Below, in pieces: positions 17,617 to 41,500 of a stretch of DNA of 64,000 nt. Source of the DNA: Euryarchaeota archaeon UBA88 (GTDB lineage Archaea; Thermoplasmatota; Poseidoniia; Poseidoniales; Poseidoniaceae); NCBI GenBank assembly GCA_002499545.1, contig DAME01000003.1:77089-141088 (forward strand), written 5' to 3'. Under the pieces are notes generated by a model. The model searched no databases. It worked only from the letters and a program-made list of their open reading frames with translations, and was not told where the DNA came from. Position 1 is the first letter of the stretch. The number at the start of each line of letters is the position of its first letter. Position numbers and translations under genes: made by a program.

Positions 17617-19194
17617 TCAACCGTTGATGCCGACCCACTTGTAGCGCCGTGCACCTTCATCAACACCTTCATCTCCGATTTCAACCAGCGCAAATTCACC
17701 TTGTGGCGTAACAACGCTGTCGTCTTGAAGGCCCTTGTGGAGGTTCTCATAGGTGACATGGTCAATAGCAATACGTCCAGCTAGACGCTCAAACAAATGC
17801 CAGCGAGAAACGACTTCTCTCCAACGTGGACTCACTTTGCCCTCGAACACCTTGGCTTTTGCTCCAGAACCATATCCGCAAAGTCCAAACAAGGCATTGT
17901 CGAGATTGCAGTTTTCTTCCAAATCAGATTCGAACGTTGACATCAAGGCGAGGAAAATCGAACCGGTGTATTGGTTTCCAATCAAACTGCTCGCACGCTG
18001 TCCTTTTTCGATGCGACTGGCGTGGAAATCAATGTACTCAGGTGTCTTTGAGATAGCTCGTCGATAGCCGTCCATGGCTTTCTCCCAGATCTCGATGATT
18101 TGGGGGTCGTCTGAGTTGTGCTCTTCAGGCATTGGACCGAGTTGCTCTGCGATTGATTGCCAAATTTCGGTATCCTGCCGGTCGTGCCTAAAGATGTCGG
18201 GGAACATACGCTTTGCTTGGAAGGCATAGGGGAGATGCATGATAATTCGAGACCATTGTTCAGTGAACCTCTCATCGTTTTCATGGGAATATCGACCCTG
18301 TTTTTCGGCCTTCTTGGAAAAATTATGGAATGCCTGTCGGACTGCATCTTGGTAGCATCGGTTTGAGAATTGTCCGTCGAAGATTGGGTCGTCACGATGA
18401 ACGCTCACTTTCTCTTCACCATGAGCAAAAATACCGAGTTTGCGAACAGTCGATTCTGGAAGGTGCCGGATCATGCGCTCAATCAAGCCCTTTTTCATCG
18501 TTTGACCGGTTTCTTGGGCAAGCTGTAGCACGTTTGAGATTACAGATCGAATACTGACTTCTCGTCGTGGTTTGAAGAAATCATGGACGGGTGTCGTTGA
18601 AACACCGATACAGTCTGGTATTTCGAGCAAGCGTGGGTTTCGGCGAATCAACAAAGCGCCACCACCGGCTCCTTGCGTGTATTCTCCAGACGATTCAAGT
18701 GCATACTTGGCGTTGTCTGAAAAAATGACAATACCTGTCCGCTCATCGGATTCAGTGGAGCGAGCGACCCAGTCGAGGGTTGTGTGAAGAGCGTCAACCG
18801 CTCCAATACAGGCAAACGTCATGTCAACTACGTCACAATTTCTAAAACAGTCTGCACCAAATCGTTCTGAATAACGTTGAGTGAGCATATCGACAATGTA
18901 GGTCGCAGTCGGCTTCGCGCCGTCAAGGGCTGATTCTGTACCGAGATACATTCGTCCAATCGTGTTTGGGTCAAGGCCGTTGCGATCGATGATTTGCATG
19001 ACGGCCATAGCACCCATTGTGGCGGTGTCTTCGTGCACGTCAGGAATCGCCATCGCTTCAAGGCCCAAGCCCTTGTTCAGCTTACCAAAATCTGCACCTC
19101 GCAGTTCTGCAAAATCCTTCATGTCCATGTAAAGACGAGGGAAATGAATTGCAATATCATCGATACCGACAGTCGCTTCACCGTTGTCACTCAT
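17617..19194 (-). CDS. HMG-CoA synthase, mvaS/eukaryote-like type
   Basis: VGIDDIAIHFPRLYMDMKDFAE, GTESALDGAKP, MTFACIGAVDAL (Cys nucleophile region), EYTQGAGGGALLI and NQYTGSIFLAL align by eye to bacterial MvaS. I take Met21 (19194) as the start; the track ORF starts at 19254. Confidence 0.8.
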   Translation of the reverse strand: MSDNGEATVGIDDIAIHFPRLYMDMKDFAELRGADFGKLNKGLGLEAMAIPDVHEDTATMGAMAVMQIIDRNGLDPNTIGRMYLGTESALDGAKPTATYIVDMLTQRYSERFGADCFRNCDVVDMTFACIGAVDALHTTLDWVARSTESDERTGIVIFSDNAKYALESSGEYTQGAGGGALLIRRNPRLLEIPDCIGVSTTPVHDFFKPRREVSIRSVISNVLQLAQETGQTMKKGLIERMIRHLPESTVRKLGIFAHGEEKVSVHRDDPIFDGQFSNRCYQDAVRQAFHNFSKKAEKQGRYSHENDERFTEQWSRIIMHLPYAFQAKRMFPDIFRHDRQDTEIWQSIAEQLGPMPEEHNSDDPQIIEIWEKAMDGYRRAISKTPEYIDFHASRIEKGQRASSLIGNQYTGSIFLALMSTFESDLEENCNLDNALFGLCGYGSGAKAKVFEGKVSPRWREVVSRWHLFERLAGRIAIDHVTYENLHKGLQDDSVVTPQGEFALVEIGDEGVDEGARRYKWVGING

Positions 19195-19266
19195 CAACAC
19201 TACTCGTATCGGCCCCCTATTTGAAAGAGCATCATGAAAAAAAAAACAATTCATCGTTTCAGAACA

Positions 19267-24607: not shown

Positions 24608-25363
24608 TCACACATTCCCTCTGACCGTCTTGCAACCCACGCCCCATTCCTGTTCCTGCATTGCAGAACGTGTCGCATCGAGTAACTCATCTTCTGCCGA
24701 GTATACACGCTCGCTCCCCTTCTTCCAAGCAAGCGCCATTTGAACTCCATCAAAACTCCAACTTTTCAATTGAATTTTTGATTTTTCAATTGATATTTCC
24801 TCATTTCTCTCTTCAATTGGAATTTTAATTAAGCGAGGGTTGAGATGCATCCCTAACTGCATGGCTTTTTGGACAGCTTCTTTCGAAGTCCATAGCTCAA
24901 TAGCCCGGTCAGAATTAGAACGAAGCCACCGCAACTCCTCCCCCTTAGCCATCATGTCAAATGCATTGGCAGCGATACCTCGCTGAGCATCTTCTGCATC
25001 AAAACCGACCGACCAGCCATGTTCTGCCAAAGCCACATACGCCCATCCACTGGAATGGCATACGCTCATTGCAGGCAAAGGTGAATTAAGCCACACACCA
25101 GGTAGATACGAAAGCACTGGAGCCCGCTGTGACGTACGAAGGACTTCAATCGCAGAGACTTCAAGACCCCATTCTCGCAGTGCTTCACCCAATAGCCAAC
25201 GCCCACTGAGATGTTCATTCATACGCTTGGCTGTGGCGAAGGTTGCCACTTCATCAATCTGGGCCAGTCCTACGAGTTCGACCGCGACTGTACGAACACG
25301 GGTCCTAAAAAGTCGCATCTGTATTGGAATAGAAAACGGAGGAAACACTTCCTCGACTGTCAT
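24608..25363 (-). CDS. 4'-phosphopantetheinyl transferase, Sfp type
   Basis: GFDAEDAQ (G-x-D motif) and WTSKEAVQKAMQLG ((F/W)-x-x-KE-A-x-x-K motif). The ATG lies 9 nt after the megasynthase stop, with GGTGG in between. Confidence 0.85.
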   Translation of the reverse strand: MTVEEVFPPFSIPIQMRLFRTRVRTVAVELVGLAQIDEVATFATAKRMNEHLSGRWLLGEALREWGLEVSAIEVLRTSQRAPVLSYLPGVWLNSPLPAMSVCHSSGWAYVALAEHGWSVGFDAEDAQRGIAANAFDMMAKGEELRWLRSNSDRAIELWTSKEAVQKAMQLGMHLNPRLIKIPIEERNEEISIEKSKIQLKSWSFDGVQMALAWKKGSERVYSAEDELLDATRSAMQEQEWGVGCKTVRGNV

Positions 25364-25372
25364 AGTACCACC

Positions 25373-28300
25373 TCAGCGTTCAAGCGTGAACGCTTGTTCA
25401 TCAGGCACTGGAGCCATACTCTTGAGCCGCAGCCCCTTCATTGCGATGACTGGAGCGTCGTCGTCCCCGATAATCACAACATCGTGTACTGTGATACCGG
25501 CATCTTCCACCGATGTGCGTAGACTTCGCATGCGGAGTACTTCATCGCGTTCAGGAACCCGAAGCATCGACGACCACTCAATCCCAACAGGCAGTGACGA
25601 GAAACCTTCAGATTCCATCGCCACCAAGCCAGCGTTCTGGAAACCAGCCTCGATCAACATCGGTAAAGCTTCCAACAACACGACCTCGCCCTGAGTCTCC
25701 AAAGCAAACTGGTCGAGAACTGGGAGTTGGTGCCGCATGAGGGCAATTCCATCTGCTCCGGGCGTCTCCACATCCCCAACACCGCGAAGGACACCTCCGT
25801 GTGATTGGAATCGAGGTCCGTGGAAGTATCGCCTGTAAATGAAGGACGGCAACTCGGAAAGTTCACCCATGGCTGGAGTACCAATGTGAGGCAGCGCATC
25901 AACCTCAGATTGTAGGAAAGGTCCAAGGTCGTCGTGCAGTTCAACGAGACGTACAACAGCGACATGATGTTCCCGTTGTCCGAACACCTCCCCTTTCGAG
26001 TTGGTGAGATCCGAAAGAAGCTGGCATGAAACCCAACTCATGCCACCTTCACTGCGGAGTAAATCACATTGTACGCGTACCGTCATCGCACCCCTTAGCA
26101 ACTTTACTGGCAAACCAAAAGTGACTTCTTCAAATCCAGCCAAGCATGCGGAAGGACGCAGGAGTAAAGCCCCCTCTGCAAACATCTCCAGTGCCATTAC
26201 ACCAGGATGGTAGGGCACGCCATCGATGGCGTGGTCTGACAAGAATGGATGGTCAGCCACAGAGAGAGTAGATTGAGTGGTCAGTGTCGTGCCCTCCGAA
26301 TAATCTAGAACCTTATCGATGAATGGGAACCTGTAAGGGTCTGCCAGTATTGCTGCCATTTCAGCAGGTAATCGAAGTGGTGATTCACGGAACACATCGT
26401 GAACGTCCATGAGACCAAGTCGCCCACATCCCAGAACCCGGCGCTTCCCACCTTTCAGAGCCTCGTCAACGAATATTTCAACGCCTTTTTCTACTGAAAT
26501 AGTATCGATACCTGCTGCATCGAAAACGGCTTGGAACGACCCTCGTGTTGCCATTCCAACATCGCGCCATCCCGTCCATGCAATGGATACTGCTCTGCAC
26601 GTTCCAGTTGCTGTAAGGCGGGCCATCTCTGCATCAAGTACGCTGTTCGCAGCAGCATAATCGGTCTGTCCATTGTTACCAAATCGCCCAGCTACGCTGG
26701 TGAAACATGCAGCAAAGCGTAATCCATCGCTTTGGGATGCTTCTACTGCCGCTATCAAGGCCTGCCATCCATCGACCTTCACTCGAACCACGTTGTCGAA
26801 CACTTGATTGTCCTTGTCAGCGACGAGTTTCGAATCTTCAAGACCTGCGCCGTGCACTATGCCTGTGATTGGGCGACCAAGTTGACTTCCAACCTTCTTC
26901 AACCCGTCAACATCAGTTACATTCACTGAATGATAGGATGCAGTATTACCCGTATCCTCGATGGTCTTGATGGTGAGGTGCACGTCTCGGCTTCGGGTGA
27001 AGTTCTGCCAAGCGTTGTTCCATTCAACCATAGTGACCTTATCACCGTTTTTGGCATCAATCATAGAACTACGAAGAGCGTTTTTGCGGTCTGATAGTTG
27101 TTCATCAGACCAAGCAAGCCATTCGTTGGTTTCTTCGATGAGGTGTGATCGTCCAAGCAATGCAAAGTGTGCTCCGATGTTTGAAGACTGCTGAGCAACG
27201 CCAATTATTGAAGCAGCGGTAACACCAGACCCGCCTCCTGAAACAATCCACGTATCGTCGGACTTGAGAGGCGTTTCGACGTTCGACGAATCCTCGGCGA
27301 AGGCGACAAGCGTCCAACGACGTCCATCTCTATCAAGACCGATTTCGACCTCACCTCCGATATTGAACAAGTCGTGTTCAACTTGTAGCGCCGCCTCGTC
27401 TGCATCAAGAATCAATTCAGGATGAAGGTCCAGTGCGCGTGAACGGACATGCTGCCGTTCAAAGGAATACGATTTGGTCACGCCAGATGCGGCACATTGA
27501 ACGGCATTGAATCGCTCACCAATATTTCCGTGCCGTCCATCAAGGGCCGTAACTGATGCAACCAAGCCATCATTGCGGGTTGAAAGGGCGGCATCGAAGC
27601 CTTTCAACAGCCCGAAGTAACCGTGTGCTGCTAAAGCGATTTGAGAGGAAGGAATGGTATCTTCAACCCACGATGCACCGGCCAGCTTGAGAGGGGCCAT
27701 GTGGACAATTCCAGCCACATTGTGAGAGGAAAGTTCACTGCATACTTTCGCAATGTGTTCGGGGTTGGCAGGATCTGCACGGAAGACCGTTCGTTGACCC
27801 TCCATTTGTGTTGACATGTCACGGATATCGCTTTCAAACCCAACTCGAACAGCTGCAAGTCCGCGGGCTTCTATTTTCTGACATAGTGCCTCTGCGATGC
27901 CCCAGCCATCGTCGGTCACCACGATGGTGCCTTCCAGCGAGAGTGGCGAACTGGTACCTTGGCACTCCTCGACCTCAACTTGCCAGCGTCGGCACGGATC
28001 GGGTGAATCATCCAGCAGCAGCGTTTCAGCAACCGCGAAGTCGCTTGGTTGAGCATGTTCAACGGGTGCGATAGAAATTTCAGTCGCTGAACCTCCCCTC
28101 ATAAGAACGATGTAAGCGATGAAATGATTCAATGTTGGATGGTCAGACAGAATAAATTCTTCATCGATAGGAAGTTCGAATGCATCGCGTACATCGCCCA
28201 TGATTTCGGCTTGCTTGACCGTATCAATTCCCAATTCACCCTCAAGGTCTTGGTCCAACTCGATGAAATCGCTTGGGTAACCGGTGTGCTTGACAACGAT

Positions 28301-31300
28301 TGAAACCAATTGTTCCACAATCGCTTCATCGGTATGAACGCCTACCGGAGCAGGTACTGGTTCGGGAGGTGAATCGGTCTTGACGGGTTGTGGTTCTGCT
28401 GCTGGTTCGACGACTGCTTGGACTGTTGATTTGCCCCCCGTCATGGTTTGAATGTACGCAATCATGTGGTTCAGCGTCGGATAGTCTGAGAGAACAAATG
28501 CTTCATCGACGGGAAGAGAAAACCGTTCCCTGATCTCTGCCATGATTTCTGCTTGTTTGACCGTATCAATACCTAATTCGCCTTCGAGATCTTGGTCTAA
28601 TTCAATGAAGTCACTCGGATAGCCCGTATGATTGACAACGACTTCTACAACTGTAGCGATGAGTTGAGAATCATCGACTGAGGGCCTGGGCCCGGTTTGA
28701 GGAATGGTTTCCGTCGTTGGTACTTCTTTGACTGGTGATTCGGGTACTACAGGGATTTCAGCGGATTGTGAAGGTGCAGCAACTGGCGAACCAGATGTCA
28801 TTCGTTCGATGTACGCAATCATGTGATTAAGGGTCGGATAGTCTGAAAGAATGAACTCTTCATCGACTGGAAGTGAGAACTTTTCTCGGATTTCAGCCAT
28901 GATTTCCGCTTGCTTAACGGTGTCAATACCTAATTCACCTTCCAAGTCTTGTTCTAATTCGACAAAGTCTGCAGGATACCCCGTATGATTGACGACTACT
29001 TCTACAACCGTGGCAACCAAATCGTCAGGTGCTGAAGTCGGTAGCGTTGAGTGGACAACTGGAACTGGTTCTGGCATCGGAACTGGTTCTGGGGCAGGTG
29101 ACGGTTCTGTAACTTCAGCACTCATGCTTGGCATTCCTTCCCAAGCAGCCGTGACGTCCCAAGGCAGACCCTGTACGCCGCCATGTAGGTTCTCATCCCC
29201 TTTCACATATGCAACCAATTTGTTTTCAAGAATTCGTAAGACAACGTCTTCCGTGCCTGCGAGACCTCTTGACCATGCCAAGAATTGCGCACCGTTGATT
29301 CGTTCGCCGACAACCGGCCACTTGCGAACCAAAGACAGTGCTACTTGAGACCCAAAACCTGCAGCAAAGCGTAACCCGTACTCCAAGTGCGGATATTCGC
29401 CACCCTTGGAGAGGTTCAAATTTCCGAGCTCCGGATCGGTTTCTTTATGATTCGCAATCGGAGGGATGCGCCCGGTTTCCAGTCCGTACAACATGCTTGC
29501 ATCCTCGATACCTACACCCATTGGATGGCCAGTGAATCCTTTGGTGTTAGCAATGACAAGCGAGTCAGTGCTTTGGCCAAACGTATCGCGCAGAGCGCGG
29601 ACTTCTGATTGGGCTGAACCCCCACGAGCAGGTGTGAATGTTTCATGCGAGAAGAACACCGTTTTTGGCGCCATTTCATGTCGGTCAAGGTCCCATTTCT
29701 GTTCCATAGAACCGATGAATTGGTCAACAATTTCAGCAACGTGATCCACGTCTAATCGGGTCCCATGGAATGCTGAATTTGCAGTCGTGGCACCAAGTAA
29801 TTCTGCGATAGGTTGTACACCCCTTTCGGCTGCGACTGAATGCCGTTCAACGACGAATGCTGCAGCACCCATACCTAAGATCAACCCGTTTCGACGGCGG
29901 TCAAACGGCAAAGCAGTTTCTTCAACCACATTACCCGTGGCAGCGGCACCTGAAGCTGCAAAGCCGCTTCCAATCCATTCCCACAGATCATCGCCAGTGA
30001 CATCATCTGCTGAGATGATGACAACACGGTCGACTCGATCGCTGTTCAACCAGTCTTCAGCGACACCAAATGCAGCAGTTGAGGATGCGCATGCGAGATT
30101 AATGGTCGTGTTCGGTCCGCGAATCCCAGAATATTGGGCAAATTGTGAATGACCCATGTTGAGAGTCTGGAACAAGTATCGACGGTCAAACCGTCCCTCT
30201 CCATCATCTCCGTTGGTTTTCGCATGCTGCATCGCTTTTTGCAACCCAGGGAAGCAGGATGCGAACACGACACCCGTTCGTTCACGTCGATGTTGAGGTA
30301 CTTCCCAATTCCGAATTAAACGAAGGCCGCCCTTGCCAATTTGCTCGTTTGGAGTGAGCGGTATTCCGGCATCTCTCAGGGCCAAAAGCCCCGCTGCAAC
30401 ACCCAATTGTGTCGTGATGTCCCATGCCAATATGGATTTAGGGTCGATTCCGAATTCATCTGCTAAATCAAACGCTGCCTTCACCCCAGCAAGTTGAGGT
30501 ATGTCTCCAAACTCAGTTGCTTGTTCCATGTTCACAGAACCGTCTCGGCCTTTGATGAGGCGGACGATGTTCTTGTCGAGGAGGCGTTGTTTGTATTCGT
30601 CACTGACTTCAGAGATACAGGTCTCACCTCGAATGAGACGCTCAAAGGTGTCTTCTTCAAAGACGCGTTCTCCTCCGGGTAGACCCAACGACACCCCTGT
30701 GATGACATACGGGTCTGCTTTGCGTTGTTCGTGCAGCGACGGTGAAGATGAGTGCTGAACCGATGCACTTGGGACTGCGTGTACCATTGAGGTGCGAGGC
30801 GTCCATGCTGGTGGCGGGCCCTCGACCCAAGCCATCAAGTCGGACGCGAGAACCAAACTGGAACGGTCGATGTCTGGCTTCGTAGAAGTCTCGGTAGAGA
30901 TGGTATGGAGTAAGGAGGTCACCTTTTGCTCAGACAGGCCAAGGCCTGCTCGAAGGTTGACATTACCGTTACAGAATCGAGAGGGGTATCCGCTCAGTGC
31001 CGCTAATCGGTCCCCGATGTAGGCCTCTTTGGCTTCACGGGCTGCAACTTCAGGGTCGATGATTTTTGATTGTTGAACCGTGACGGTTCGAGGTAGTGCA
31101 GCAGGAGAAGAGCTTTCAACGGTGGGCAAAGGACGTGAACGGGTCCGCAAATCCTCCACGTGCGAGGACAATTTTGGTGATGGATTAGCTACGTGATAGG
31201 CTTCTAATGGCCCGGCACGGAATCCTTCAGAGAGGACGGTCGAGGTTCCAGCTGGCCAGATGGGTTGACGGCCGGCTAGAGCTAGCGTACCCAATGCGGA

Positions 31301-34192
31301 GAGGAAAGAAGCAATACCGCCCTGCTTGGGGTGGTTTGTCATGATTGGAAGATGGGGTTGGTCTTCTAGAATTTGAACAGCAAACATTGTCAATGCCCGC
31401 TTTGGACCTACTTCAAGGAACACTCGGGCACCTGCCTCATACATGGTTTCAATTTGTGTCGTCCATTCGACCGCTGATGCCATTTGTGGTGCTAACTTTT
31501 CAAGAATACCTGCCTTCGAATCTTTTCCTTCAGTGGGATAAAATTGTCCGTCGACGTTCGCAGTGATTGGGATACTAGGCCAGCGAATCTCGAGCCCTTC
31601 GAGGAAACGGCGAAGTGGTTCGTTCGCAGGGGCGACGATGCGTGAATGGAATGCGTGAGATGTAGCGAGGGGGACGCACTGGAAACCTTTGGCATCAAAC
31701 GTAGCCACGGCATTCTTGACAGCGTCGGTTTCCCCAGCAATTACGGTCATCTTCGGAGAGTTCTTGTTGGCAGCAATAACGTAGCCATCCGCTTCACTCA
31801 GCACAGCCGCAACCTCATCGTAAGGCGCCATAATACTCGCCATCAGCCCTTTATCATCGATTACGACCGAGCCCATTTCAGTACCTCGTGCCGCAGAAGC
31901 ACGCAGGGCGCCGTCCATGTCAAGAATTCCTGCAGACATCAAGGCAGCGTATTCACCAAGTGAGTGCCCAGCGACCATATCGGGCTTTTGCCCATGGTCA
32001 TTCAGTGCTCGTTCAATGGCTAAGTCGGCTGTAAGCATGGCAGGTTGAGTGTATTCAGTTTGCTTCAGTTTGAATTCTGCTTCTTTGAGTTGCTCTTTAT
32101 CCAGATTCGCACGGAGGACGAAACTGGAAAGCGTTTCTCCGTCAAGAACCTCGACCATCGTTCTGTCAGCTTGCGCCCACACCTCTTGGACTGATGAAAA
32201 ACGTTGATACAAGTCATAGGTCATACCGACATACTGACTACCCTGGCCCGGATACATGTGGGCTATCTTTGCCTGAGAAGGAAGTGGAGGATCGTTGGTA
32301 ATGAGAACGCCTTGGGCCTGTAAGAACCCCCATTTCTCTGAATCGTCCATCGCTTTCAGGGCCAGAGCGGTTCGCTTGTGGAACTCGGACCATGATGTTG
32401 CAACAATGCACATTCGGAATGACGCCTTGGCATCAAATTCAGACGACATATGGTTCAATACGATCGATAATCGTTGACCGTGGGGGTCGCTGTCGAAATG
32501 TTCGCCGTCCAGTTCCAATGATTCAATCTGCGACTTCAACCCGGATAGTTCGTCTGCCGAGAGCAGGAGAATTCCCCCCTCAATCGCCTTCAACTCGTCG
32601 TGAGTCATGCTTGGTGTGGCGGTGGAATCGAGTATAGATGGTGATTCAGGCACCGTATTCGTACCAATTGTGGAAGTGTTTTTGGCATAAGCATCCCATC
32701 GATTCTGCCATTGTGAAGCAAGTTCTGCGTGATAGTCTGGCTCATATCCTTCTAGAGCGACGTGAAAATTCGTGCCCCCAAATCCGAAGGCAGAGACTCC
32801 GGCTCGGCGAGGATGACCTTCTGGACGTGGCCAGTCACGGGCCTCAGTTGGTACGAAGAACGGGATATTCCCCCAGTCGACGGTGGGATTTGGAGTCTTG
32901 AAACCGGCAGAAGGGGGGATTGTTCGATGGTGAAGGGCCATGGCTGATTTGATCAGGCCAGCGATTCCCGCAGCAGCCTTCAAGTGGCCGATTTGTGACT
33001 TTATTGAACCGACTGCGACATGGTCACCCGGTGGTGAACCATCCCATATAAGCGAAAGAGAGCCCAATTCAGTTGCGTCTCCAACCTTGGTTGAAGTCCC
33101 GTGCGCTTCGATGAGTTCCACTGTCGTAGCATTGTATCCCGCTTGCTCGTACGCACGGGCAATCGCTTGGAGTTGGCCGCGCTGACTTGGAGCAGTGATT
33201 CCCTTGCCCCTACCATCAGATGAACCACCGACGCCCCGAATGACAGCATACACTTCGTCGCCATCATGAATCGCATCGTTCAAGCGCTTGAGGACAAATG
33301 CGCCTGCACCCTCGCCCATCACGAAACCGTTTGCTCCAGCGTCAAAAGGCGTCGAATGTGTTGGTGAAAGGGCGCCAATCGCGCTGAACTTCGCGTACGT
33401 AGGGGCGTCTAAGCTTCGGTCCGTAGCGCCAGCAACCATGGTGTCGACTTGTCGCATCTGTAAGGCGCGACAAGCGTCGAGAACTGCTGCCAAGGACGAG
33501 GCACATGCCGCGTCCATTGCGTAATTGGGACCTTGGAGGTCGAGAAGATTCGCTACCCTTCCAGCAACAACGTTCGCTAATTCACCTGGCATGGTGTCTT
33601 CATTGATGCGAGGGGTGTTTTGAATCATAGAATCGACGAAAGCTTTCGCATTCGAATCCGGAAGCCCCTGTGCTTTGGCAAGTTCTGAGACGTGATTCGA
33701 ATAAATCCGGATGTTGGAAAGGTTTCGGTTCTCGCCACCTAATGCATTCGCAAATGCAACTCCAGTACGCTTTCGGTCGATGTCTTTCTCAACGCCATCA
33801 TACCCTGCTTGTTCAATTGCAGCGGCAGCGACGCTGACCGCCCATTGCTGGCTCAAATCGATTTGAGATAATGTTCCTGGTGGCTGCTTCCAGCGCCGCC
33901 AATCGAATTCATACCCCTCGACCATTGCACCAATTTTCGAATAAGTGAATCCTTCCTCGATATTACCCGGTCCGCCTTCGCGATAGAAATGCTTCATCGG
34001 CCCGGTCCAGCGGTCATCCCGCAGCGTCCGAATACTGACTTTGGCATCGAGAATGTTTTGCCAAAACGCATCGATATCTGGGGCATCGGGCATCAGTGCT
34101 GAAATCCCAACCACTGCAATGGGTTCAAACGGACCTTGGTCAAGGCCCTCGATTTCGTTTCCTTTCGAATCTTTAACCATAGAATCCCTCAT
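25373..34192 (-). CDS. Iterative type I PKS / PUFA-synthase-like megasynthase, KS-AT-KS-ACPx3-KR-DH
   Basis: The track ORF starts at 34291 and overlaps fabI. ATG 34192 overlaps the fabI stop as ATGA (alternative ATG 34180 with GAGGGA upstream). Domain motifs are listed in the sub-features below. Confidence 0.95.
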   Translation of the reverse strand: MRDSMVKDSKGNEIEGLDQGPFEPIAVVGISALMPDAPDIDAFWQNILDAKVSIRTLRDDRWTGPMKHFYREGGPGNIEEGFTYSKIGAMVEGYEFDWRRWKQPPGTLSQIDLSQQWAVSVAAAAIEQAGYDGVEKDIDRKRTGVAFANALGGENRNLSNIRIYSNHVSELAKAQGLPDSNAKAFVDSMIQNTPRINEDTMPGELANVVAGRVANLLDLQGPNYAMDAACASSLAAVLDACRALQMRQVDTMVAGATDRSLDAPTYAKFSAIGALSPTHSTPFDAGANGFVMGEGAGAFVLKRLNDAIHDGDEVYAVIRGVGGSSDGRGKGITAPSQRGQLQAIARAYEQAGYNATTVELIEAHGTSTKVGDATELGSLSLIWDGSPPGDHVAVGSIKSQIGHLKAAAGIAGLIKSAMALHHRTIPPSAGFKTPNPTVDWGNIPFFVPTEARDWPRPEGHPRRAGVSAFGFGGTNFHVALEGYEPDYHAELASQWQNRWDAYAKNTSTIGTNTVPESPSILDSTATPSMTHDELKAIEGGILLLSADELSGLKSQIESLELDGEHFDSDPHGQRLSIVLNHMSSEFDAKASFRMCIVATSWSEFHKRTALALKAMDDSEKWGFLQAQGVLITNDPPLPSQAKIAHMYPGQGSQYVGMTYDLYQRFSSVQEVWAQADRTMVEVLDGETLSSFVLRANLDKEQLKEAEFKLKQTEYTQPAMLTADLAIERALNDHGQKPDMVAGHSLGEYAALMSAGILDMDGALRASAARGTEMGSVVIDDKGLMASIMAPYDEVAAVLSEADGYVIAANKNSPKMTVIAGETDAVKNAVATFDAKGFQCVPLATSHAFHSRIVAPANEPLRRFLEGLEIRWPSIPITANVDGQFYPTEGKDSKAGILEKLAPQMASAVEWTTQIETMYEAGARVFLEVGPKRALTMFAVQILEDQPHLPIMTNHPKQGGIASFLSALGTLALAGRQPIWPAGTSTVLSEGFRAGPLEAYHVANPSPKLSSHVEDLRTRSRPLPTVESSSPAALPRTVTVQQSKIIDPEVAAREAKEAYIGDRLAALSGYPSRFCNGNVNLRAGLGLSEQKVTSLLHTISTETSTKPDIDRSSLVLASDLMAWVEGPPPAWTPRTSMVHAVPSASVQHSSSPSLHEQRKADPYVITGVSLGLPGGERVFEEDTFERLIRGETCISEVSDEYKQRLLDKNIVRLIKGRDGSVNMEQATEFGDIPQLAGVKAAFDLADEFGIDPKSILAWDITTQLGVAAGLLALRDAGIPLTPNEQIGKGGLRLIRNWEVPQHRRERTGVVFASCFPGLQKAMQHAKTNGDDGEGRFDRRYLFQTLNMGHSQFAQYSGIRGPNTTINLACASSTAAFGVAEDWLNSDRVDRVVIISADDVTGDDLWEWIGSGFAASGAAATGNVVEETALPFDRRRNGLILGMGAAAFVVERHSVAAERGVQPIAELLGATTANSAFHGTRLDVDHVAEIVDQFIGSMEQKWDLDRHEMAPKTVFFSHETFTPARGGSAQSEVRALRDTFGQSTDSLVIANTKGFTGHPMGVGIEDASMLYGLETGRIPPIANHKETDPELGNLNLSKGGEYPHLEYGLRFAAGFGSQVALSLVRKWPVVGERINGAQFLAWSRGLAGTEDVVLRILENKLVAYVKGDENLHGGVQGLPWDVTAAWEGMPSMSAEVTEPSPAPEPVPMPEPVPVVHSTLPTSAPDDLVATVVEVVVNHTGYPADFVELEQDLEGELGIDTVKQAEIMAEIREKFSLPVDEEFILSDYPTLNHMIAYIERMTSGSPVAAPSQSAEIPVVPESPVKEVPTTETIPQTGPRPSVDDSQLIATVVEVVVNHTGYPSDFIELDQDLEGELGIDTVKQAEIMAEIRERFSLPVDEAFVLSDYPTLNHMIAYIQTMTGGKSTVQAVVEPAAEPQPVKTDSPPEPVPAPVGVHTDEAIVEQLVSIVVKHTGYPSDFIELDQDLEGELGIDTVKQAEIMGDVRDAFELPIDEEFILSDHPTLNHFIAYIVLMRGGSATEISIAPVEHAQPSDFAVAETLLLDDSPDPCRRWQVEVEECQGTSSPLSLEGTIVVTDDGWGIAEALCQKIEARGLAAVRVGFESDIRDMSTQMEGQRTVFRADPANPEHIAKVCSELSSHNVAGIVHMAPLKLAGASWVEDTIPSSQIALAAHGYFGLLKGFDAALSTRNDGLVASVTALDGRHGNIGERFNAVQCAASGVTKSYSFERQHVRSRALDLHPELILDADEAALQVEHDLFNIGGEVEIGLDRDGRRWTLVAFAEDSSNVETPLKSDDTWIVSGGGSGVTAASIIGVAQQSSNIGAHFALLGRSHLIEETNEWLAWSDEQLSDRKNALRSSMIDAKNGDKVTMVEWNNAWQNFTRSRDVHLTIKTIEDTGNTASYHSVNVTDVDGLKKVGSQLGRPITGIVHGAGLEDSKLVADKDNQVFDNVVRVKVDGWQALIAAVEASQSDGLRFAACFTSVAGRFGNNGQTDYAAANSVLDAEMARLTATGTCRAVSIAWTGWRDVGMATRGSFQAVFDAAGIDTISVEKGVEIFVDEALKGGKRRVLGCGRLGLMDVHDVFRESPLRLPAEMAAILADPYRFPFIDKVLDYSEGTTLTTQSTLSVADHPFLSDHAIDGVPYHPGVMALEMFAEGALLLRPSACLAGFEEVTFGLPVKLLRGAMTVRVQCDLLRSEGGMSWVSCQLLSDLTNSKGEVFGQREHHVAVVRLVELHDDLGPFLQSEVDALPHIGTPAMGELSELPSFIYRRYFHGPRFQSHGGVLRGVGDVETPGADGIALMRHQLPVLDQFALETQGEVVLLEALPMLIEAGFQNAGLVAMESEGFSSLPVGIEWSSMLRVPERDEVLRMRSLRTSVEDAGITVHDVVIIGDDDAPVIAMKGLRLKSMAPVPDEQAFTLER
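25412..26329 (-). other. Megasynthase domain DH (PKS-type double hot-dog dehydratase)
   Basis: LSDHAIDGVPYHPG matches H-x3-G-x4-P (His2687). The C-terminal hot-dog half contains GPRFQ... Confidence 0.75.
26432..27994 (-). other. Megasynthase domain KR (ketoreductase with structural subdomain)
   Basis: TWIVSGGGSGVTAASIIG Rossmann motif, GIVHGAGLED and catalytic GQTDYAAANSVLDA. Confidence 0.85.
28094..29023 (-). repeat. Three tandem acyl-carrier-protein domains (coding repeat, period 357 and 342 nt)
   Basis: Three copies of ...VVNHTGYPSDFIELDQDLEGELGIDTVKQAEIMAEIRE.F.LPVDE.F.LSDYPTLNHMIAYI... separated by P/E/V-rich linkers. The copies differ at many synonymous sites. Confidence 0.9.
29318..30715 (-). 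other. Megasynthase domain KS2 (second, apparently catalytically intact ketosynthase)
   Basis: INLACASSTAAF (Cys1401, codon 30089-30091), PFDRRRNGLILGMGAAAFVVE, SAFHGTRLD (His1509) and NTKGFTGHPMG (His1589). Confidence 0.85.
31352..32266 (-). other. Megasynthase domain AT (malonyl-type acyltransferase)
   Basis: YPGQGSQYVGM, GHSLGEYAA (Ser777, codon 31961-31963) and the SHAFHS (HAFH) motif associated with malonyl specificity. Confidence 0.9.
32747..34129 (-). other. Megasynthase domain KS1 (ketosynthase)
   Basis: EPIAVVGISALMPDA, DAACASS (Cys263 in ORF-track numbering, codon 33503-33505), EAHGTSTKVGD and GSIKSQIGH. Confidence 0.9.
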
Positions 34193-34983
34193 TGGTCCAT
34201 AATGCTCGGAGGCACCATCGTGATTGAGTATCCACCATCGACGTAAATGCATTGGCCGGTCACGCCACTTGCAAGAGGACTTGCAAGCCACAGCGTGGCA
34301 CCTGCAACGTCTTCTTGGTTGACATTTCTCCTCAAAGGAGCGTTTTCCTCGACGTGAGCAAGGATGTTATCGAAACCAGGGACTCCGCTTGCGGCAATGG
34401 TGCGAATCGGCCCGGAAGATATGGCGTTAACTCGGTGACCTTCGGGGCCTAAATGGCATGCAAGTTCGCGAGTCCAACATTCAAGGGCTGCTTTGGCCAT
34501 CGACATAATACCATAATTTGGAACGAATCTATTGGAAGCAGCGTAGGTCAGAGTGATCGTTGAAGAACCGGGGTTAAGGTACGGAAGTGCATGCTTCAAA
34601 CAGCGTTGAAGTGAGTTGGCAGAAATGGTCATTGCCGTGTTAATATCGGTGTCTTCAACGAAAAGAATTGGGCGGTCGAAGCAGGCTCGAGGTGCAAAGC
34701 CGATGGCGTGAATGAGGATATCTGCCTTCTTACCAGGGTGTTCTTTCTCAAAGGCTTCGAAGAATTCACGAGTCGTTGCGTCTTCTGCAACATCCAGAGG
34801 ATAAAATCCCCCTATCTGTGGAAGTTTGTCCTTCAGTTGGAAAATACGACTCATGAATCTTTTCTGATAACCGAGATACAGCGTCACACCTGCGGCAGCG
34901 AGATGTTGACAAATCGCCCAAGCAATGGAATCTTCACTGGCGACTCCGAAAACGAAGGCTGTCTTTCCTTGTAATTTGAGCAT
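34189..34983 (-). CDS. fabI: Enoyl-[ACP] reductase, FabI type
   Basis: GKTAFVFGVASEDSIAWAI, NYGIMSMAKAALE (Y-x6-K) and SSGPIRTIAASG. Start taken at Met14 with GGTTGGTG upstream (the track ORF starts at 35022). Confidence 0.9.
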   Translation of the reverse strand: MLKLQGKTAFVFGVASEDSIAWAICQHLAAAGVTLYLGYQKRFMSRIFQLKDKLPQIGGFYPLDVAEDATTREFFEAFEKEHPGKKADILIHAIGFAPRACFDRPILFVEDTDINTAMTISANSLQRCLKHALPYLNPGSSTITLTYAASNRFVPNYGIMSMAKAALECWTRELACHLGPEGHRVNAISSGPIRTIAASGVPGFDNILAHVEENAPLRRNVNQEDVAGATLWLASPLASGVTGQCIYVDGGYSITMVPPSIMDQ

Positions 34984-35097: not shown

Positions 35098-36234
35098 TCA
35101 CAAATCATCGAATAAATCGTCGAATTCATCTGATTCCTCAGAATCCATGTCCAAGTCAGAGAACATATCATCGAAATCATCGTCCTCTGCCCCACTTTCT
35201 TCGGGTTCTTCTGGAAGAATGATCGGTTGTTTGAGGGTTGGTTTTTGCTGCTTTTTCGGCTTTTTGCGTACGACTCGCACAAGAACGAGCAGGAACAACA
35301 CCAGGAGAAGAGAACCGCCGCCAATAGCAGCATACATTATCGTGTCATCGTCGCTGATTGAAGTCAAACCTTCCAAACCACTGGATTGACTCTGGCCTTT
35401 GACGTCAAGCTGGATCGTGACTTCGCTGAATTGGGCTGAATCATCGTTGCCACTCTGAGCGCGAATGATGAGTGGATTTCGAAGGTCTTCACTCAACTGT
35501 GAAGGAGAACGGATGCTCAATGTCTTGACAGAAGAGGTTCCTTGCGAAGGCACGTTTTCGCTGATAAATGTGCCTGCTGGGAATGAGAAACCTGCAGCTT
35601 CGAGTTCGGCAGCATTCGCTATGACAACCTCGAGTTTGTCGTCATCGTTTCCTTTATTGGTCATTTGGAAGGTGAATTCTACTTCTTCACTTGTCTCCAT
35701 ATACCGTGTGGTGATGTCTGAAAGTGAGAGTTCAATCATTCCGTAGGATTCGATACTAAAGTCGCCAATGTAGGTCGTGTTTGCAACCCAAGGACCTTCC
35801 GGCAACTGCCCGTACGGAAGACTGTTCCACGATTCTACCTTGGCTTCAATCACGAATTCATGCATGATTGAAGCCGAAAGCTTGGTTTGTCCAGAAAAGA
35901 GAAGCTCAAATGTATCGTCTTCACCTGCAGCGAGCGTGAACGAATCTTCTGAGAGTGAGAGTTCGACTAAAATTCCATCCCATTCGATGACCTCAATGCT
36001 GATGTCTTCACTCGCAGAAGTTGGGTTGGTTACAGTGCACACCACGGATACCTCGGCATCCGAGGTTGGCCGGACGTCCATGACAGGGTCTGAACCACAG
36101 TCCAATTCAACTGCTGGAAGCGGCGAGCCTTGTGCTGATGCGGTGGAAAGAAAGCATGGAGCAATGAACAGTGCCATCACAAGGCCGATTATCAAGGACT
36201 TATGAACGGATGACACGGTTATGGGTGAGGGCAT
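35098..36234 (-). CDS. Type I membrane/surface protein with acidic cytoplasmic tail
   Basis: N-terminal signal-like segment (LIIGLVMALFIAPCFLSTASAQG), a beta-rich ectodomain of about 280 aa, a C-terminal TM (GGGSLLLVLFLLVLV) followed by RVVRKKPKK, then an acidic tail with two (D/E)FDD(M/L)F repeats. Confidence 0.65.
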   Translation of the reverse strand: MPSPITVSSVHKSLIIGLVMALFIAPCFLSTASAQGSPLPAVELDCGSDPVMDVRPTSDAEVSVVCTVTNPTSASEDISIEVIEWDGILVELSLSEDSFTLAAGEDDTFELLFSGQTKLSASIMHEFVIEAKVESWNSLPYGQLPEGPWVANTTYIGDFSIESYGMIELSLSDITTRYMETSEEVEFTFQMTNKGNDDDKLEVVIANAAELEAAGFSFPAGTFISENVPSQGTSSVKTLSIRSPSQLSEDLRNPLIIRAQSGNDDSAQFSEVTIQLDVKGQSQSSGLEGLTSISDDDTIMYAAIGGGSLLLVLFLLVLVRVVRKKPKKQQKPTLKQPIILPEEPEESGAEDDDFDDMFSDLDMDSEESDEFDDLFDDL

Positions 36235-37237: not shown

Positions 37238-37786
37238 TTAGATTCGCTGAACAAACATTCCTTTTTCTTGAAGAATTCCGCGCCAGTAAACAGCAGCCAT
37301 CGCAACCATGTTTCGATGCCGTGCATCGGTTGCCACGCAGCGACCGTTTGGCCACATGTGCAACGTGAGGTTGTGCCGGGTATCCGATACAACGCTGCAA
37401 CCCAGTCGCTGGTCGTAGACAGAAGTACCGGCGTTAAAGTCGCCCACCAACTGGTTAACGTCCAAATCACTGCCAAATTCAAAAGATGCGACAACTGGTC
37501 CTAGTTCCGTTTCAAGCCCTGAATCACTGAGCCCTAAACGCAGCATCAATTCTTTGGCTGCCGCACGTGCAGATTCAACTCGATGTGTACCGTGCACGAC
37601 TATTCGACCTTCTGCATCGATGACAATGGTTGCTCTTGGGTGGTCCAGCACCTTGATGACAACGCCACCAGTTTGTTGACCACCTAATTGGGCAACAACG
37701 GCTGATTGGTCAATAGGCGAGGGTGCAACAAAGCGAACAAGCTGATTTTCGATTCGTACGTCAATGGTTCCAGCTGCCATATTCAC
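37238..37786 (-). CDS. Divergent TBP-fold (TATA-box-binding-protein-like) two-repeat protein
   Basis: 182 aa. Repeat 1 is VRIENQLVRFVAPSPIDQSAV...PRATIVIDAEGRIVVHGTHRVESARAAAKELMLRLGL. Repeat 2 is PVVASFEFGSDLDVNQLV...HNLTLHMWPNGRCVATDARHRNMVAMAA. This matches TBP topology, but the canonical FPG and SGK-TGAKS motifs are absent. Its ATG overlaps the upstream stop by 4 nt. Confidence 0.4.
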   Translation of the reverse strand: MNMAAGTIDVRIENQLVRFVAPSPIDQSAVVAQLGGQQTGGVVIKVLDHPRATIVIDAEGRIVVHGTHRVESARAAAKELMLRLGLSDSGLETELGPVVASFEFGSDLDVNQLVGDFNAGTSVYDQRLGCSVVSDTRHNLTLHMWPNGRCVATDARHRNMVAMAAVYWRGILQEKGMFVQRI

Positions 37787-38599: not shown

Positions 38600-41500
38600 T
38601 TACTGGCTCTCTACCCACTCGAGTAACGCTTGAACGCTCCATCCTTGGTCGAAGTATCCTTGGATTTCTTCCTGAGTCCACTGAGGGAACTTCTGCATGG
38701 CATCACGCATCTCTGGTGAGAGGCTCGAGGCTGCTGGAGGCGGCCCTGAGAGAGTCGAAGATTGCTGAGGAATATCGACATAGGTTTTCGAATCTGATTC
38801 ATCGTCTTCATCGAACAAGTCAGATTCTCCACTGCGACGGATCAGAACGAATACCAGTGTTCCGAGTACTGCTACGGCAATTCCGAGTATCGATGCTAAC
38901 ACCACGAATCCAGTCGAGTCAGACGACTGACTTTCGACCTTGACGTTGAATGATTCTCCTACAGAGGAACCGTTGAACAACAGTTCATTTGTCGTGTTGT
39001 CTGAAATCATGTAGTACATTCCAGTAGTCGCCAAATTAAACTGTTGAAGTTCAACTGAAATCCACGACTTTTGTCCAACTGCAATTTCTCCGGTAGATAC
39101 GCTGCTCTCAAAGATGGGGGTACTTCCACCAATCACCGAGCGGATATTGAGGTCTGTGGATCCGTCCATAGTCCCATCGTTTCGAACTTCGATTTCAAGT
39201 GTAACCTTGTCGCCAACCTCTGGAGATGAAGGCGACATGATCACGTTATCGATGAGGAAACTGGCTTCTTCATGAATCAACTCATACATGGACTTGTGAA
39301 CTGGGTCCCCTGAATTGATGAATCCAATACTTCCGTCTTCATTTGGGCCGCCGCCAAGAATTGCACGGGTACCTGCTGAATCGGTTGCATCAATCCAAAA
39401 CACGATATCGACGTTGGATATTTGCTCACGTTCAGGATCATCTTGTCCTTCTGAGAGTGGCCACAAGTCGATGCAGTCACCAACTGCAGAATACGAACCA
39501 CCGCTCTCACTGATGATGAGTTCATGCGACATTGGTTCATCGCCGAAAGTACTGCGGTAAATCGGCCAAGTAATGTTGTTGGACGAATCGGTGTAGAAAC
39601 TCCACGAAACAAAGACGTCGCCTTGGAACATTGCTTCTCGTTCTTCGAGAGCAACTTGTACATCGACACAATGGAAGGTCGAAGTCGGCAACACATTTGC
39701 CATTGGCTCATTGGTCAATCCTTTCATTGCAGACCATGAGTTGGATGAAACCCGAGGTGCGGTTCCGTCAACTTTGATCTTGAAGTTTTGGCACCCATAT
39801 GAAGCGGAGCCGGCACAGAATGCAGAGGTACTGTCAACTGCTCCCAGAGGGAGGCCAGCAATACCGTTTCCACACTCACCGTTGACTCCACCAGAACCAC
39901 CGGTCGCGTCATAGGGGCACAATCTGAAGACGTAGGTGTATTCGTTGGTCACTGGAGGTGCCGTGATGTTAATGTCGAATACGCCACCAGTGAACGAGTG
40001 ATATGTCACTTCACCAGGGAATGCAATGTAACCCTTGGCGCCGTCCATAGATGCAGCTTGCCGGGTAATCTCGAGCGTCAATTCGGTTTCAGGAGTGATG
40101 TAGACTTCGTTGTTAATTCCTTCAACGTAAGCGTATTGACCCTCAAATCCAATGATGTCACCGGGATAGACGAAGCCCTTGCGAACATCGTTTGTTTTCG
40201 GCTCCATGAGATCCATGAATGTAGGTGTGACCATCAAATCGTTGGCCGTATCTGCACGGAAATCAAGTTGAATTCCATCACTGTAGTACCAGTCTTGAAT
40301 GTGTCGACCGGGAGCCGGCAACATGCGGTATCGTGGGTTATCCAAGTCCTGCATGTACAGCACAGGGTTGTTCAACGAACTGGAAGCACCCGGCAGCCCC
40401 CACGTCATTCGAATCGGCAGGTCGAGGTAGAAATCAGATTCAAACGGATCGATTAAGACGCCGCCATCCATTCGCAGAACTTGGGGTCCTTGTGATGTCG
40501 CCGATTCTCCGAGAATTTCGATGAATGGGCTTGAAGTCCATGCAGTTTGGTTTCGTGGGAAGAACCAGACGGTCATGTCGTCTCGGTCATCAGCCAGGTC
40601 GACTCGGAAGTAGTCAACATCACGCCATCCGTTGTCGTCGTTTGCTTCTACAATCAGGTGATATTCGTTTCCAGCGTACATGGTTTGGTTCCACTTTCCG
40701 TTGTATTGCTGTTGATTGGACTTAAGGAAGCGACTTTCCTGTGAATCTTCAACGAAGAAATTTCGGATCACTGGCGACTTAGAACTCATTGAAACATAGG
40801 TGAACTTATCGTTTTCAAATCCTGGTGCTCCACCGTTTATGGCGTTACCAGCGAGGTCAAATCCTTCAATCCAAATGCTGACTTTACCTACTGGGTCTTT
40901 ACCAACGTTCGCGTAATCGTTGAACGTTGCGGTGTAGTTTGCAAATGGAGCGGCTCCATCGCTGTTTGCTGTCACCGTGATGTATTCATCAGCATCGGCT
41001 TGTCCATCACCATTCGTGTCGTGGTCGTGTTCGACCCATACCATGATGTTCAGCGACGAAGGCGGATTTGGAAGGTCGCTAGCATTCAAACGGATTTTCT
41101 GAGTTGTTGATGGAACAACCCACGTATCATCAACCATCACACGCCAGTTACTTTCCACCGATGGATCGACTTCTCCGTTAAGAATTCGCACATCGACAAG
41201 ATTCGGGTCCAGTGTGTCGATTGAAAGGTTGAACGGAATAGCACAGGAACTGTCAGGTCGGTACTCTGCAGCAGGGCAAAGTGTGTCTCCACCCTCGTAA
41301 CCGTCTATGCGGAAACGATAGGTGTCTTGACCAGCAGCCATGCCGAGGTCAATTTGCCAGTTGAAGTCACCGCCAATTACACCTGATTGGTTTGCAACTG
41401 TATGCCATTCAACGCTGATGTTTCCATTCGAGTTGTTGATGAACTTCTGTTCAAGCACCATAAAGTAGCCACTTGGGTCAGGTGATATCGACAGGTCTTG

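Follow-up and report, generated by a model that had tools for sequence, protein, structure and literature searches.

Archaea are defined partly by their isoprenoid ether lipids. Here we ask what an operon that appears to encode a complete acyl carrier protein (ACP)-dependent acyl-chain synthase is doing in the genome of a marine archaeon. The DNA analyzed (the window) is a stretch of 64,000 nucleotides from Euryarchaeota archaeon UBA88 (contig DAME01000003.1, positions 77,089 to 141,088), and the operon consists of fabI, a megasynthase gene and a gene for a 4'-phosphopantetheinyl transferase (PPTase). According to a preprint, nearly all archaea lack both ACP and ACP synthase (bioRxiv 10.1101/2024.07.05.601840). 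Our analysis suggests that the operon is probably a vertically inherited, iterative ACP-dependent type I synthase of the fatty-acid/polyketide type that would make a saturated acyl chain. A preliminary description, made from the sequence alone, had placed the three genes at 24608-34983, and all three were found there, co-directional on the minus strand. The features of the operon are as follows.

34189-34983, minus strand: fabI, enoyl-ACP reductase of the short-chain dehydrogenase/reductase (SDR) type, 264 aa, proposed trans-acting enoyl reductase (ER); Pfam, NCBIfam and PDB matches
34181-34188, minus strand: fabI-synthase junction, gggattct, from the fabI stop to the conserved synthase ATG; orthologue comparison
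25373-34192, minus strand: megasynthase open reading frame (ORF), uninterrupted, 2,939 aa if read from ATG 34192 but probably 2,935 aa, starting at ATG 34180
32723-34135, minus strand: first ketosynthase (KS1), of the type I polyketide synthase (PKS) kind, with Cys230, His364 and His403; Pfam ketoacyl-synt and Ketoacyl-synt_C
31268-32272, minus strand: acyltransferase (AT), malonyl-type, with GQGSQ, GHSLG (Ser744) and HAFH; Pfam Acyl_transf_1 4e-35, TIGR00128 fabD 6e-63
30818-31048, minus strand: degenerate ACP-like remnant between AT and KS2, residues ~1049-1125, Glu at the attachment position; local alignment
29303-30712, minus strand: second ketosynthase (KS2), FabF-like, the "CLF" (chain-length factor) of Type R clusters, with Cys1368, His1516, His1556 and Lys1551; TIGR03150 fabF 2e-37, Pfam ketoacyl-synt 2e-16
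28793-29035, 28436-28678 and 28094-28336, minus strand: three tandem ACPs, each with LGIDTVKQAEIM; Pfam PP-binding, three matches
26453-28012 (catalytic part 26453-27262), minus strand: ketoreductase (KR) and structural subdomain, with GGGSGVTAA, the LED motif, Tyr2512 and Asn2516; Pfam KR 1e-23
25376-26335, minus strand: dehydratase (DH), PKS-type double hot-dog, with His2654 in HxxxGxxxxP, YFHGPRFQ, and Glu2848 in LIEAGFQ; Pfam PKS_DH_N 5e-9, PS-DH 2e-4
25364-25372, minus strand: synthase-PPTase junction, ggtggtact, with a GGTG ribosome-binding motif; alike in orthologues
24608-25363, minus strand: divergent Sfp-type PPTase, 251 aa, with CHSSGW, GFDAED and WTSKEAVQKA; Pfam and profile search

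The KS-AT-KS-ACP3-KR-DH architecture, first read from motifs, was confirmed by Pfam matches (KS, AT, three PP-binding, KR and PKS_DH_N) together with an NCBIfam match to the second KS. In the synthase, KS1 occupies residues 20-490, AT 641-975, KS2 1161-1630, the ACPs 1720-2033, KR 2061-2580 and DH 2620-2939. Every motif quoted previously was located: DAACASS at 227, HGTST at 364, KSQIGH at 398, GQGSQ at 649, GHSLG at 742, HAFH at 846, GGGSGVTA at 2319, YAAAN at 2512 and HAIDGVPYHP at 2654. The best NCBIfam match of the whole protein was TIGR02813 PfaA (892.7 bits against a cut-off of 1010.1). PDB searches matched KS1 to type I PKS KS-AT proteins, and KS2 to FabF structures with scores down to 2e-26. 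FabI matched Pfam adh_short_C2 (4e-70), its top 12 NCBIfam matches were all FabI, and it aligned with Thermus FabI 1ULU over residues 3-254 of 264 (3.5e-55); with the Y-x6-K pair present as YGIMSMAK, this likeness to a solved FabI along its full length bears out the FabI-type identity given to it earlier.

The synthase was uninterrupted in 47 full-length orthologues, which are 59-79% identical overall. Invariant in all of them were the KS1 triad (Cys230/His364/His403, 47/47), Ser744, His846, Phe848 and the HAFH motif of AT, Tyr2512 and Asn2516 of KR, and His2654, Pro2663, YFHGPRFQ and Glu2848 of DH. KS2 was the most conserved domain (82% mean identity, 232 of 470 columns invariant), and its Cys1368/His1516/His1556/Lys1551 set was likewise invariant and also complete in the bacterial homologues inspected. 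We therefore rejected the idea that KS2 is a Cys-less chain-length factor, as its Cys-His-His triad is intact and invariant; a recent duplication of KS1 was rejected as well, the two KS domains being just 26% identical. The linkers were the least conserved parts (38-54% identity), lowest of all the ACP-remnant region at 38%. Among the three genes, fabI was the best conserved gene of the block (78-95% identical in 61 orthologous loci), and the PPTase the least conserved of the operon (45-62% in 68 loci). Because the catalytic residues are invariant, the domains are conserved over the linkers and FabI is the best-conserved gene, the pattern indicates that the operon encodes a functioning enzyme system under selection.

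In two loci the synthase was called as two ORFs (L001, 10001-18338, 1632 + 1162 aa; L002, 10001-19173, 1712 + 1330 aa). We rejected a real split, since other proteins in the same 90% cluster as that of L001 have a length of 2,778 aa, and the L001 split looks like a frameshift artefact; its record name shows Pilon polishing. Many database entries for the synthase stop at ~1,700 aa, near the ACP repeats.

The junctions between the genes are tight. Between the TGA that ends the synthase gene and the PPTase ATG lie the 9 nt ggtggtact, as described before. At the upstream junction the fabI stop and a synthase ATG do overlap as ATGA and translational coupling holds, but the overlap itself is probably incidental: the N-terminus conserved among orthologues, MVKD... 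(here MVKDSKG), corresponds to ATG 34180, 8 nt past the fabI stop. In orthologues the synthase start lay between -8 and +21 nt from the fabI stop, in most cases at 9-10 nt, the GGTG was conserved, and about 30 of 35 orthologous loci had the form stop-GGTG-N5-6-ATG. Since orthologues share both this N-terminus and this junction, ATG 34180, rather than the ATG within the overlap, is probably the true start.

Relationship to bacterial lipid synthases

To place the synthase, its first 1000 aa and its last 1239 aa were each used as a homology query. The N-terminal query gave matches at 60-80% identity solely in Poseidoniales, that is, Marine Group II (MGII), followed by a bacterial tier at 42-48%; the nearest homologues outside MGII, at 42-45% identity, were proteins of the same architecture from Chloroflexi, Elusimicrobia, Acidobacteria and Actinobacteria MAGs (metagenome-assembled genomes). 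In a neighbor-joining tree of KS1-AT, which carries no support values and does not include the named Type R genomes, MGII formed one clade nested among bacteria, and hits from a Thermoplasmatota and a Heimdallarchaeota MAG fell outside it. The synthase is of bacterial ancestry. A divergent tier, at 43-51% identity over the C-terminal half, comprised a Thalassarchaeaceae (MGIIb) protein and other Poseidoniales, which, together with the monophyly of the MGII clade, argues that the acquisition by MGII was old.

The phyla of these homologues are those of the Type R clusters, in which a pfaA homologue with the order KS-MAT-CLF-ACP(3-6)-KR (MAT, malonyl acyltransferase) is followed by a PPTase, often with acetyl-CoA carboxylase (ACC) genes; the hosts listed are Chloroflexi, Elusimicrobia and Acidobacteria (Roseiflexus, Elusimicrobium, Koribacter and Solibacter), and archaea are not mentioned (PMC3098273). 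The KS-AT-KS-ACPn-KR order with a downstream PPTase had thus already been catalogued in Bacteria, which answers the earlier question whether the architecture had been described. The MGII operon shares this layout, with KS1-AT-KS2-ACPx3-KR and then DH: here too a further KS-like domain separates AT from the ACP array, a PPTase follows, its ATG 9 nt past the end of the synthase gene, and the ACPs carry the Thr-type motif G[IV]DTVKQAE. In architecture it matches the Type R pfa-like secondary-lipid synthase family, with FabI in the place of the enoyl reductase. It differs in its archaeal host, in an operon that lacks ACC genes, and in a "CLF" with the full Cys-His-His triad, a feature it shares with the bacterial homologues inspected. 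The C-terminal DH lies outside the Type R description and is detectable in the bacterial homologues too.

A further difference concerns the ER partner, which in MGII would be the translationally coupled FabI; three bacterial loci carry an acyl-CoA dehydrogenase (ACAD)-like gene of ~550 aa beside the synthase. In L080 (Anaerolineae) and L081 (Chloroflexota), this gene lies directly upstream of KS-AT-KS2, followed by ACP-KR-DH; downstream come a PPTase and, further on, a biotin carboxylase in L080, and a PPTase, carboxyltransferase, biotin carboxylase and biotin carboxyl carrier protein in L081. L084 additionally has an Fe-S oxidoreductase and electron transfer flavoprotein (ETF) alpha/beta genes upstream. 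No fabI was found within 10 kb of these three loci, which suggests that enoyl reduction of the ACAD/ETF type takes the place of FabI in the bacterial relatives. Because ACC genes sit in the bacterial loci, the system may be read as malonyl-CoA-fed lipid synthesis. An archaeal locus, L082 (5122-8638), holds a Ser-type KS2-ACP-KR-DH gene and a PPTase, then ETF alpha, ETF beta and ACAD genes on the opposite strand, with an HMG-CoA synthase nearby that is 62% identical to that of the window; the ACAD/ETF partner may have been retained in some lineages of archaea.

In L084 the synthase is split downstream of AT into KS-AT and KS2-ACPn-KR-DH. The MGII protein carries its ACP remnant at this point, with z-scores against shuffled sequences of 4.4 and 6.9 in local alignments to ACP1 and to the mid-protein ACP of the Anaerolineae homologue P0098, respectively; P0098 has a genuine ACP at the position of the remnant. 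The remnant and the split bacterial version suggest that the ancestor of the synthase was a two-part machine, KS1-AT(-ACP) plus KS2-ACPn-KR-DH.

Compared with the canonical PfaABCDE systems of Shewanella, Moritella and Schizochytrium, the MGII operon shares the best curated model (PfaA), a KS-MAT-tandem ACP-KR-DH backbone, an Sfp-type, PfaE-like PPTase, a trans-acting ER and ACPs of the form GIDS/T-[IV]-K-x-x-E. It differs by a second KS inside the PfaA-like protein, by Thr instead of Ser in the ACPs, and by an SDR-type FabI where PfaABCDE uses the flavin mononucleotide (FMN)-dependent PfaD. The Pfam scan of window ORFs revealed no PfaB, PfaC (KS-CLF with two FabA-type DH) or PfaD, and neither PfaB nor PfaC was seen among the called genes of loci L001, L002, L082 and L083. 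With no PfaB, PfaC, FabA-type dehydratase or PfaD among the scanned ORFs, the operon is not a polyunsaturated fatty acid (PUFA) synthase. MGII FabI has the SDR fold and the Y-x6-K pair of FabI in the bacterial fatty acid synthase of type II (FAS II) but, judging from gene order, serves a type I megasynthase; other FAS II genes were not found among the scanned window ORFs. The fatty-acid complex of Sulfolobus acidocaldarius (bioRxiv 10.1101/2024.07.05.601840) would, like the MGII operon, give archaea de novo fatty acids, but it is ACP-independent and of the thiolase/SDR/MaoC type, whereas the MGII operon is ACP- and PPTase-dependent and of bacterial Pfa/PKS descent. The kind of synthase, Type R pfa-like, is known but uncharacterized, and its archaeal, FabI-coupled form appears to be new: a literature search turned up no account of the archaeal operon, of its coupling to FabI or of its conservation as a block in MGIIa.

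Proposed reaction cycle and product

The gene set for the complete KS/AT/ACP/KR/DH/ER/PPTase cycle of the Pfa or secondary-lipid type, envisaged in the preliminary description, was found. In the proposed cycle, the Sfp-type PPTase would convert the three tandem carriers to the holo form, AT (HAFH, malonyl-type) would load malonyl units from malonyl-CoA, and KS1 and KS2, both with intact triads, would carry out the decarboxylative condensations. They probably divide the labor, either by chain length or into starter and elongation steps, as the paired KS domains of PUFA synthases suggest by analogy. B-type KR motifs are associated with a 3R-hydroxyacyl product. The KR of the synthase, of the B type (HGAGLED, "LDD"-like), would yield this intermediate, and the DH with its His/Glu dyad would convert it to the trans-2-enoyl form. 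FabI, translationally coupled to the synthase, is proposed as the trans-acting enoyl reductase, and iteration of the cycle would lead to a saturated straight-chain fatty acyl-ACP. A FabA-type dehydratase/isomerase, and with it the Pfa way of introducing cis double bonds, is missing. Of the fatty-acyl or polyene product considered earlier, the fatty-acyl part is thus favored, and the B-type KR, the intact DH and the tightly coupled FabI make a polyene less likely than a saturated chain.

The operon contains neither a thioesterase nor an acyltransferase for release, as noted previously. Release would have to be carried out by a protein encoded elsewhere, for example a discrete thioesterase or the PlsC-like acyltransferases reported in MGII (PMC6962369), and transfer by the latter would be a reasonable route. 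Two genes of the window that had been suggested as possible partners lie outside the operon.

44709-45173, plus strand: YciA/ACOT-type hot-dog acyl-CoA thioesterase, syntenic, link to the operon speculative; Pfam 4HBT, PDB acyl-CoA hydrolases to 4e-26
48985-50325, minus strand: AccC-like biotin carboxylase, which may supply malonyl-CoA, its link to the operon speculative; NF006367 554.6 bits, cut-off 597

The thioesterase is present as claimed, and a 4HBT thioesterase gene also lies ~2.5 kb from the cluster in L001, but it is not Pfa-associated: a Pfa Orf6-type identity was rejected, as it matches YciA/ACOT acyl-CoA hydrolases. The biotin carboxylase, 14 kb from the operon, was recovered and is AccC-like.

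Several observations weigh against a fatty-acid synthase making saturated chains. The Type R family has no known product (PMC3098273), and MGII genomes are usually read as those of fatty-acid degraders and not makers, two large comparative papers discussing fatty-acid degradation alone (PMC6461757, PMC6336850). The scores of both main proteins fall below curated cut-offs, FabI below those of the NCBIfam equivalogs (226 against 391) and the synthase below that of TIGR02813. Since the three bacterial relatives use an ACAD-like partner and not FabI (L084 also has ETF), the partnership of FabI with the synthase is argued from gene order. The operon lacks a release enzyme, and the nearby thioesterase is of the acyl-CoA and not the acyl-ACP type. 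Finally, E. coli ACP with the substitution S36T is not pantetheinylated and is non-functional (PMC3340395); the ACPs here lack the canonical Ser, so activity would depend on a putative Thr-tolerant PPTase.

The same machine could instead make a specialized, partly reduced secondary lipid, such as a long acyl chain bearing hydroxy or keto groups, a precursor of alkyl diols or a chain resembling a polyene, with FabI, KR or DH active in only some cycles and the two KS programming different stages. This we regard as unlikely, though it deserves serious consideration: the family was defined as one of secondary-lipid synthases whose product may be modified (PMC3098273), of its relatives, PfaA serves the synthesis of PUFAs and HglE that of hydroxylated glycolipid chains, the ER is not integrated in the synthase, and two non-equivalent KS with tandem ACPs are typical of programmed Pfa-type synthases. 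On the other side, a full KR-DH set is coupled to a highly conserved FabI, and the scanned window ORFs hold no gene for a FabA-like DH/isomerase or for any tailoring enzyme such as a methyltransferase or reductase; in addition, the bacterial clusters, with just ACC and an ACAD-like gene (and ETF in one), look like bulk acyl-chain synthesis. A further possibility is a short acyl chain for modification of a cofactor or protein, such as octanoyl-ACP for lipoate as in mitochondrial FAS. MGII are aerobic heterotrophs in a domain where ACP-dependent synthesis is otherwise missing (bioRxiv 10.1101/2024.07.05.601840), and a small conserved pathway under strong purifying selection would suit such a housekeeping role. 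It is nonetheless improbable, because the size of the synthase (2,900 aa), its two KS and its three or four ACPs in tandem point to a machine made for flux and for long chains, the ACPs form part of the synthase and are not free, and no lipoate-synthesis genes were found among the Pfam-scanned window ORFs or the called genes of related loci.

Threonine at the carrier attachment sites

The three carrier repeats reported before are present, but the residue at their attachment site, which had gone unnoticed, is Thr instead of the canonical Ser. It is Thr1758, Thr1877 and Thr1991 in the motif GIDTVKQAE, and it aligns with the modified Ser in structures of PigH and AcpM, including an AcpM entry with a modified "X" at this position. 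The domains match PP-binding at the level of the fold while lacking its canonical Ser (GIDTV in all three). Inspection of the repeats and of those bacterial homologues that were examined revealed no further conserved Ser in the domain. The repeats are 64-74% identical at the nucleotide level, too diverged to be reported as a DNA tandem array by Tandem Repeats Finder.

Thr occupied this site in every ACP repeat of ~70 MGIIa orthologues, and Thr-type ACPs (G[IV]DTVKQAE) were also found in the bacterial loci L080 and L081 and in homologues P0271-P0416. Ser is found in L001, a more distant MGII contig (GVDSVKQAE), and in several archaeal sublineages, including Thalassarchaeaceae (GIDSIKQAE). We then employed an exhaustive HMMER search of 1.84 billion representatives with one ACP as the query, which gave 4,532 matches, and classified the best 146 proteins. 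Among these, 96 were all-Thr and 42 all-Ser, and the two types of repeat were never mixed in one protein. The Ser-type motifs in this set were GIDSIKRVE, which we take to be the PfaA-type ACP motif, and GIDSIKKAQ. Among representatives of at least 2,400 aa, the KS2 signature HET[FY]T was present in 29 of 30 Thr-type proteins and in 1 of 19 Ser-type proteins, which argues that the Thr-type ACP is a hallmark of the KS2-containing family and not an oddity of MGII.

The accompanying PPTase is divergent. It matched Pfam ACPS (9e-8) and, weakly, 4PPT_N; it had no NCBIfam match and, as a single sequence, no phmmer match in the PDB. A profile matched human AASDHPPT (4e-7) and Sfp (7e-6) across both lobes, and with CHSSGW, GFDAED and WTSKEAVQKA conserved in alignments this upholds the Sfp-type assignment. 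An AlphaFold model from the single sequence was unusable (pLDDT, the predicted local distance difference test score, 34). A comparison of aligned PPTases, a small sample, gave no convincing difference that would determine Thr or Ser carriers: the PPTase of Ser-type L001 was just 26-28% identical, but that of Thr-type L083 was likewise low, at 32%.

Taken together, the invariance of the Thr, the alternation of Ser and Thr in a fixed motif, the lack of another conserved Ser and the constant retention of the PPTase make it the simplest reading that the clusters' own PPTases pantetheinylate these carriers at Thr. As the attachment position is Thr, the modified residue would be O-phosphopantetheinyl-threonine. 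The alternative is an inactive relic in which the change from Ser to Thr at every carrier site killed the ACPs. Attachment-site definitions of the PROSITE type require Ser, and the fate of E. coli ACP S36T (PMC3340395) points the same way. Against such a relic, the ORFs are intact, the catalytic residues are invariant in 47 species and FabI is up to 95% identical; Thr is invariant in MGIIa and present in 96 of the 146 closest representative clusters, Ser and Thr alternate by sublineage as if the hydroxyl were used, and the PPTase gene is always kept, all of which makes a dead synthase very improbable. A literature search with limited tools found no description of Thr-type carriers. Pantetheinylation on Thr, if confirmed, would change how carrier proteins are recognized and annotated, and would define a PPTase specificity useful for orthogonal labeling.

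Host genome, neighborhood and setting

The window belongs to an MGII genome (Poseidoniales, mostly MGIIa), and the operon is vertically inherited there. A scan of one genome per GTDB species found 76 synthase loci, most of them with a single ORF spanning synthase residues ~6-2939. The records are titled Poseidoniales, Poseidoniaceae, Poseidonia, euryarchaeote, Methanobacteriota or Thermoplasmatota, with one contig deposited as Verrucomicrobiales, and four are single-cell genomes (AG-461-G23, AH-273-F07, AG-404-K16 and AH-287-P07). By tblastn with the window genes, the gene order giant surface protein-o271-TBP-like-TatD-o378-fabI-synthase-PPTase-o150 (TBP, TATA-binding protein) was kept in ~55 GTDB species. 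DnaK, thermosome and HMG-CoA synthase genes continue the conserved block in the closest species, and contigs of 1.2 Mb and 137 kb hold the same block beside TBP-like, TatD, DnaK and thermosome genes.

The tetranucleotide composition of the operon, a check called for at the outset, correlated with the rest of the window at r=0.93, within the 0.86-0.94 of other 5-kb segments, and its GC content at third codon positions (GC3) equaled that of neighboring genes. Window scans found no tRNA, Rfam match or integrase near the operon, in line with the tRNA-free boundaries described before, and the earlier view that the operon is neither chimeric nor freshly inserted was upheld. That a bacterial PKS contig was joined to archaeal DNA in assembly or binning, as the bacterial affinity of the closest non-MGII homologues and the Verrucomicrobiales label of one orthologous contig (L006) might suggest, is hardly conceivable, since both flanking junctions recur in ~55 independent assemblies, among them genomes of single cells and contigs from long reads, the longest of 1.2 Mb, the composition (r=0.93, GC3) matches its surroundings, and L006 is itself a mis-binned MGII contig. 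L006 (NZEQ01000014.1, "Verrucomicrobiales bacterium ARS100") carries an MGII fabI (91%) and a synthase (69%), plus the PPTase and o150; the presence of fabI, PPTase and o150 on the same contig identifies it as MGII DNA in a bacterial MAG.

That bacterial-type fatty-acid genes have been remarked on in MGII was stated earlier, and passages of PMC6962369 (citing Villanueva et al.) and PMC4122925 agree; the former notes a putative fatty-acid pathway together with PlsC homologues. MGII lack glycerol-1-phosphate dehydrogenase and have glycerol-3-phosphate dehydrogenase (PMC6461757), and glycerol dialkyl glycerol tetraethers derived from intact polar lipids were absent in MGII-dominated waters (PMC6962369). 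A complete and strongly conserved ACP-dependent synthase in the MGIIa core neighborhood bears on the question of mixed membranes and the lipid divide. Two linked ideas, taken together less likely than not, are that carriers of the whole KS2-containing family, bacterial and archaeal, bear their arm on Thr through co-located, highly divergent PPTases and that MGIIa make fatty acyl chains de novo as a core, vertically inherited trait. If true, O-phosphopantetheinyl-threonine, which textbook and PROSITE-type rules exclude and which E. coli AcpS cannot form, would occur naturally, and the acyl chains of MGIIa, which are among the most abundant surface-ocean archaea, would feed ester-linked or mixed membrane lipids.

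The archaeal neighbors named in the preliminary description were largely recovered, with the thermosome and pyrB/pyrI genes found and DnaK and HMG-CoA synthase genes added. Two were less secure. The MC1 candidate is an 87-aa ORF (59253-59516, minus strand) that was called MC1 by eye, outside the Pfam run. The TBP-fold gene (37238-37786, minus strand) is present, but its match is weak and divergent: one TBP repeat was matched (Pfam 4.6e-10) and NCBIfam TBP scored 26 bits against a cut-off of 181, so that it is probably a divergent TBP-fold protein, syntenic with the operon, and not a canonical TBP. A 1,971-aa ORF (38600-44515, minus strand) and the 378-aa ORF o378 (35098-36234, minus strand) lack Pfam domains; each combines a signal peptide at the N-terminus with a membrane anchor at the C-terminus and an acidic tail, and they look like fast-evolving surface proteins (26-74% identity), yet they are syntenic with the operon.

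The HMG-CoA synthase of the window (17617-19254, minus strand; 545 aa) exceeds the NCBIfam models (345-457 positions), was matched in two stretches, and is 89-92% conserved in the closest relatives. At 51005-54623, the genes for a CrtI-family phytoene desaturase (544 aa), which scores above its NCBIfam cut-off, and for a CysJ-like flavodoxin-FAD-NAD reductase (601 aa, minus strand) are divergently oriented, and carotenoid or retinal chemistry near the lipid genes is possible.

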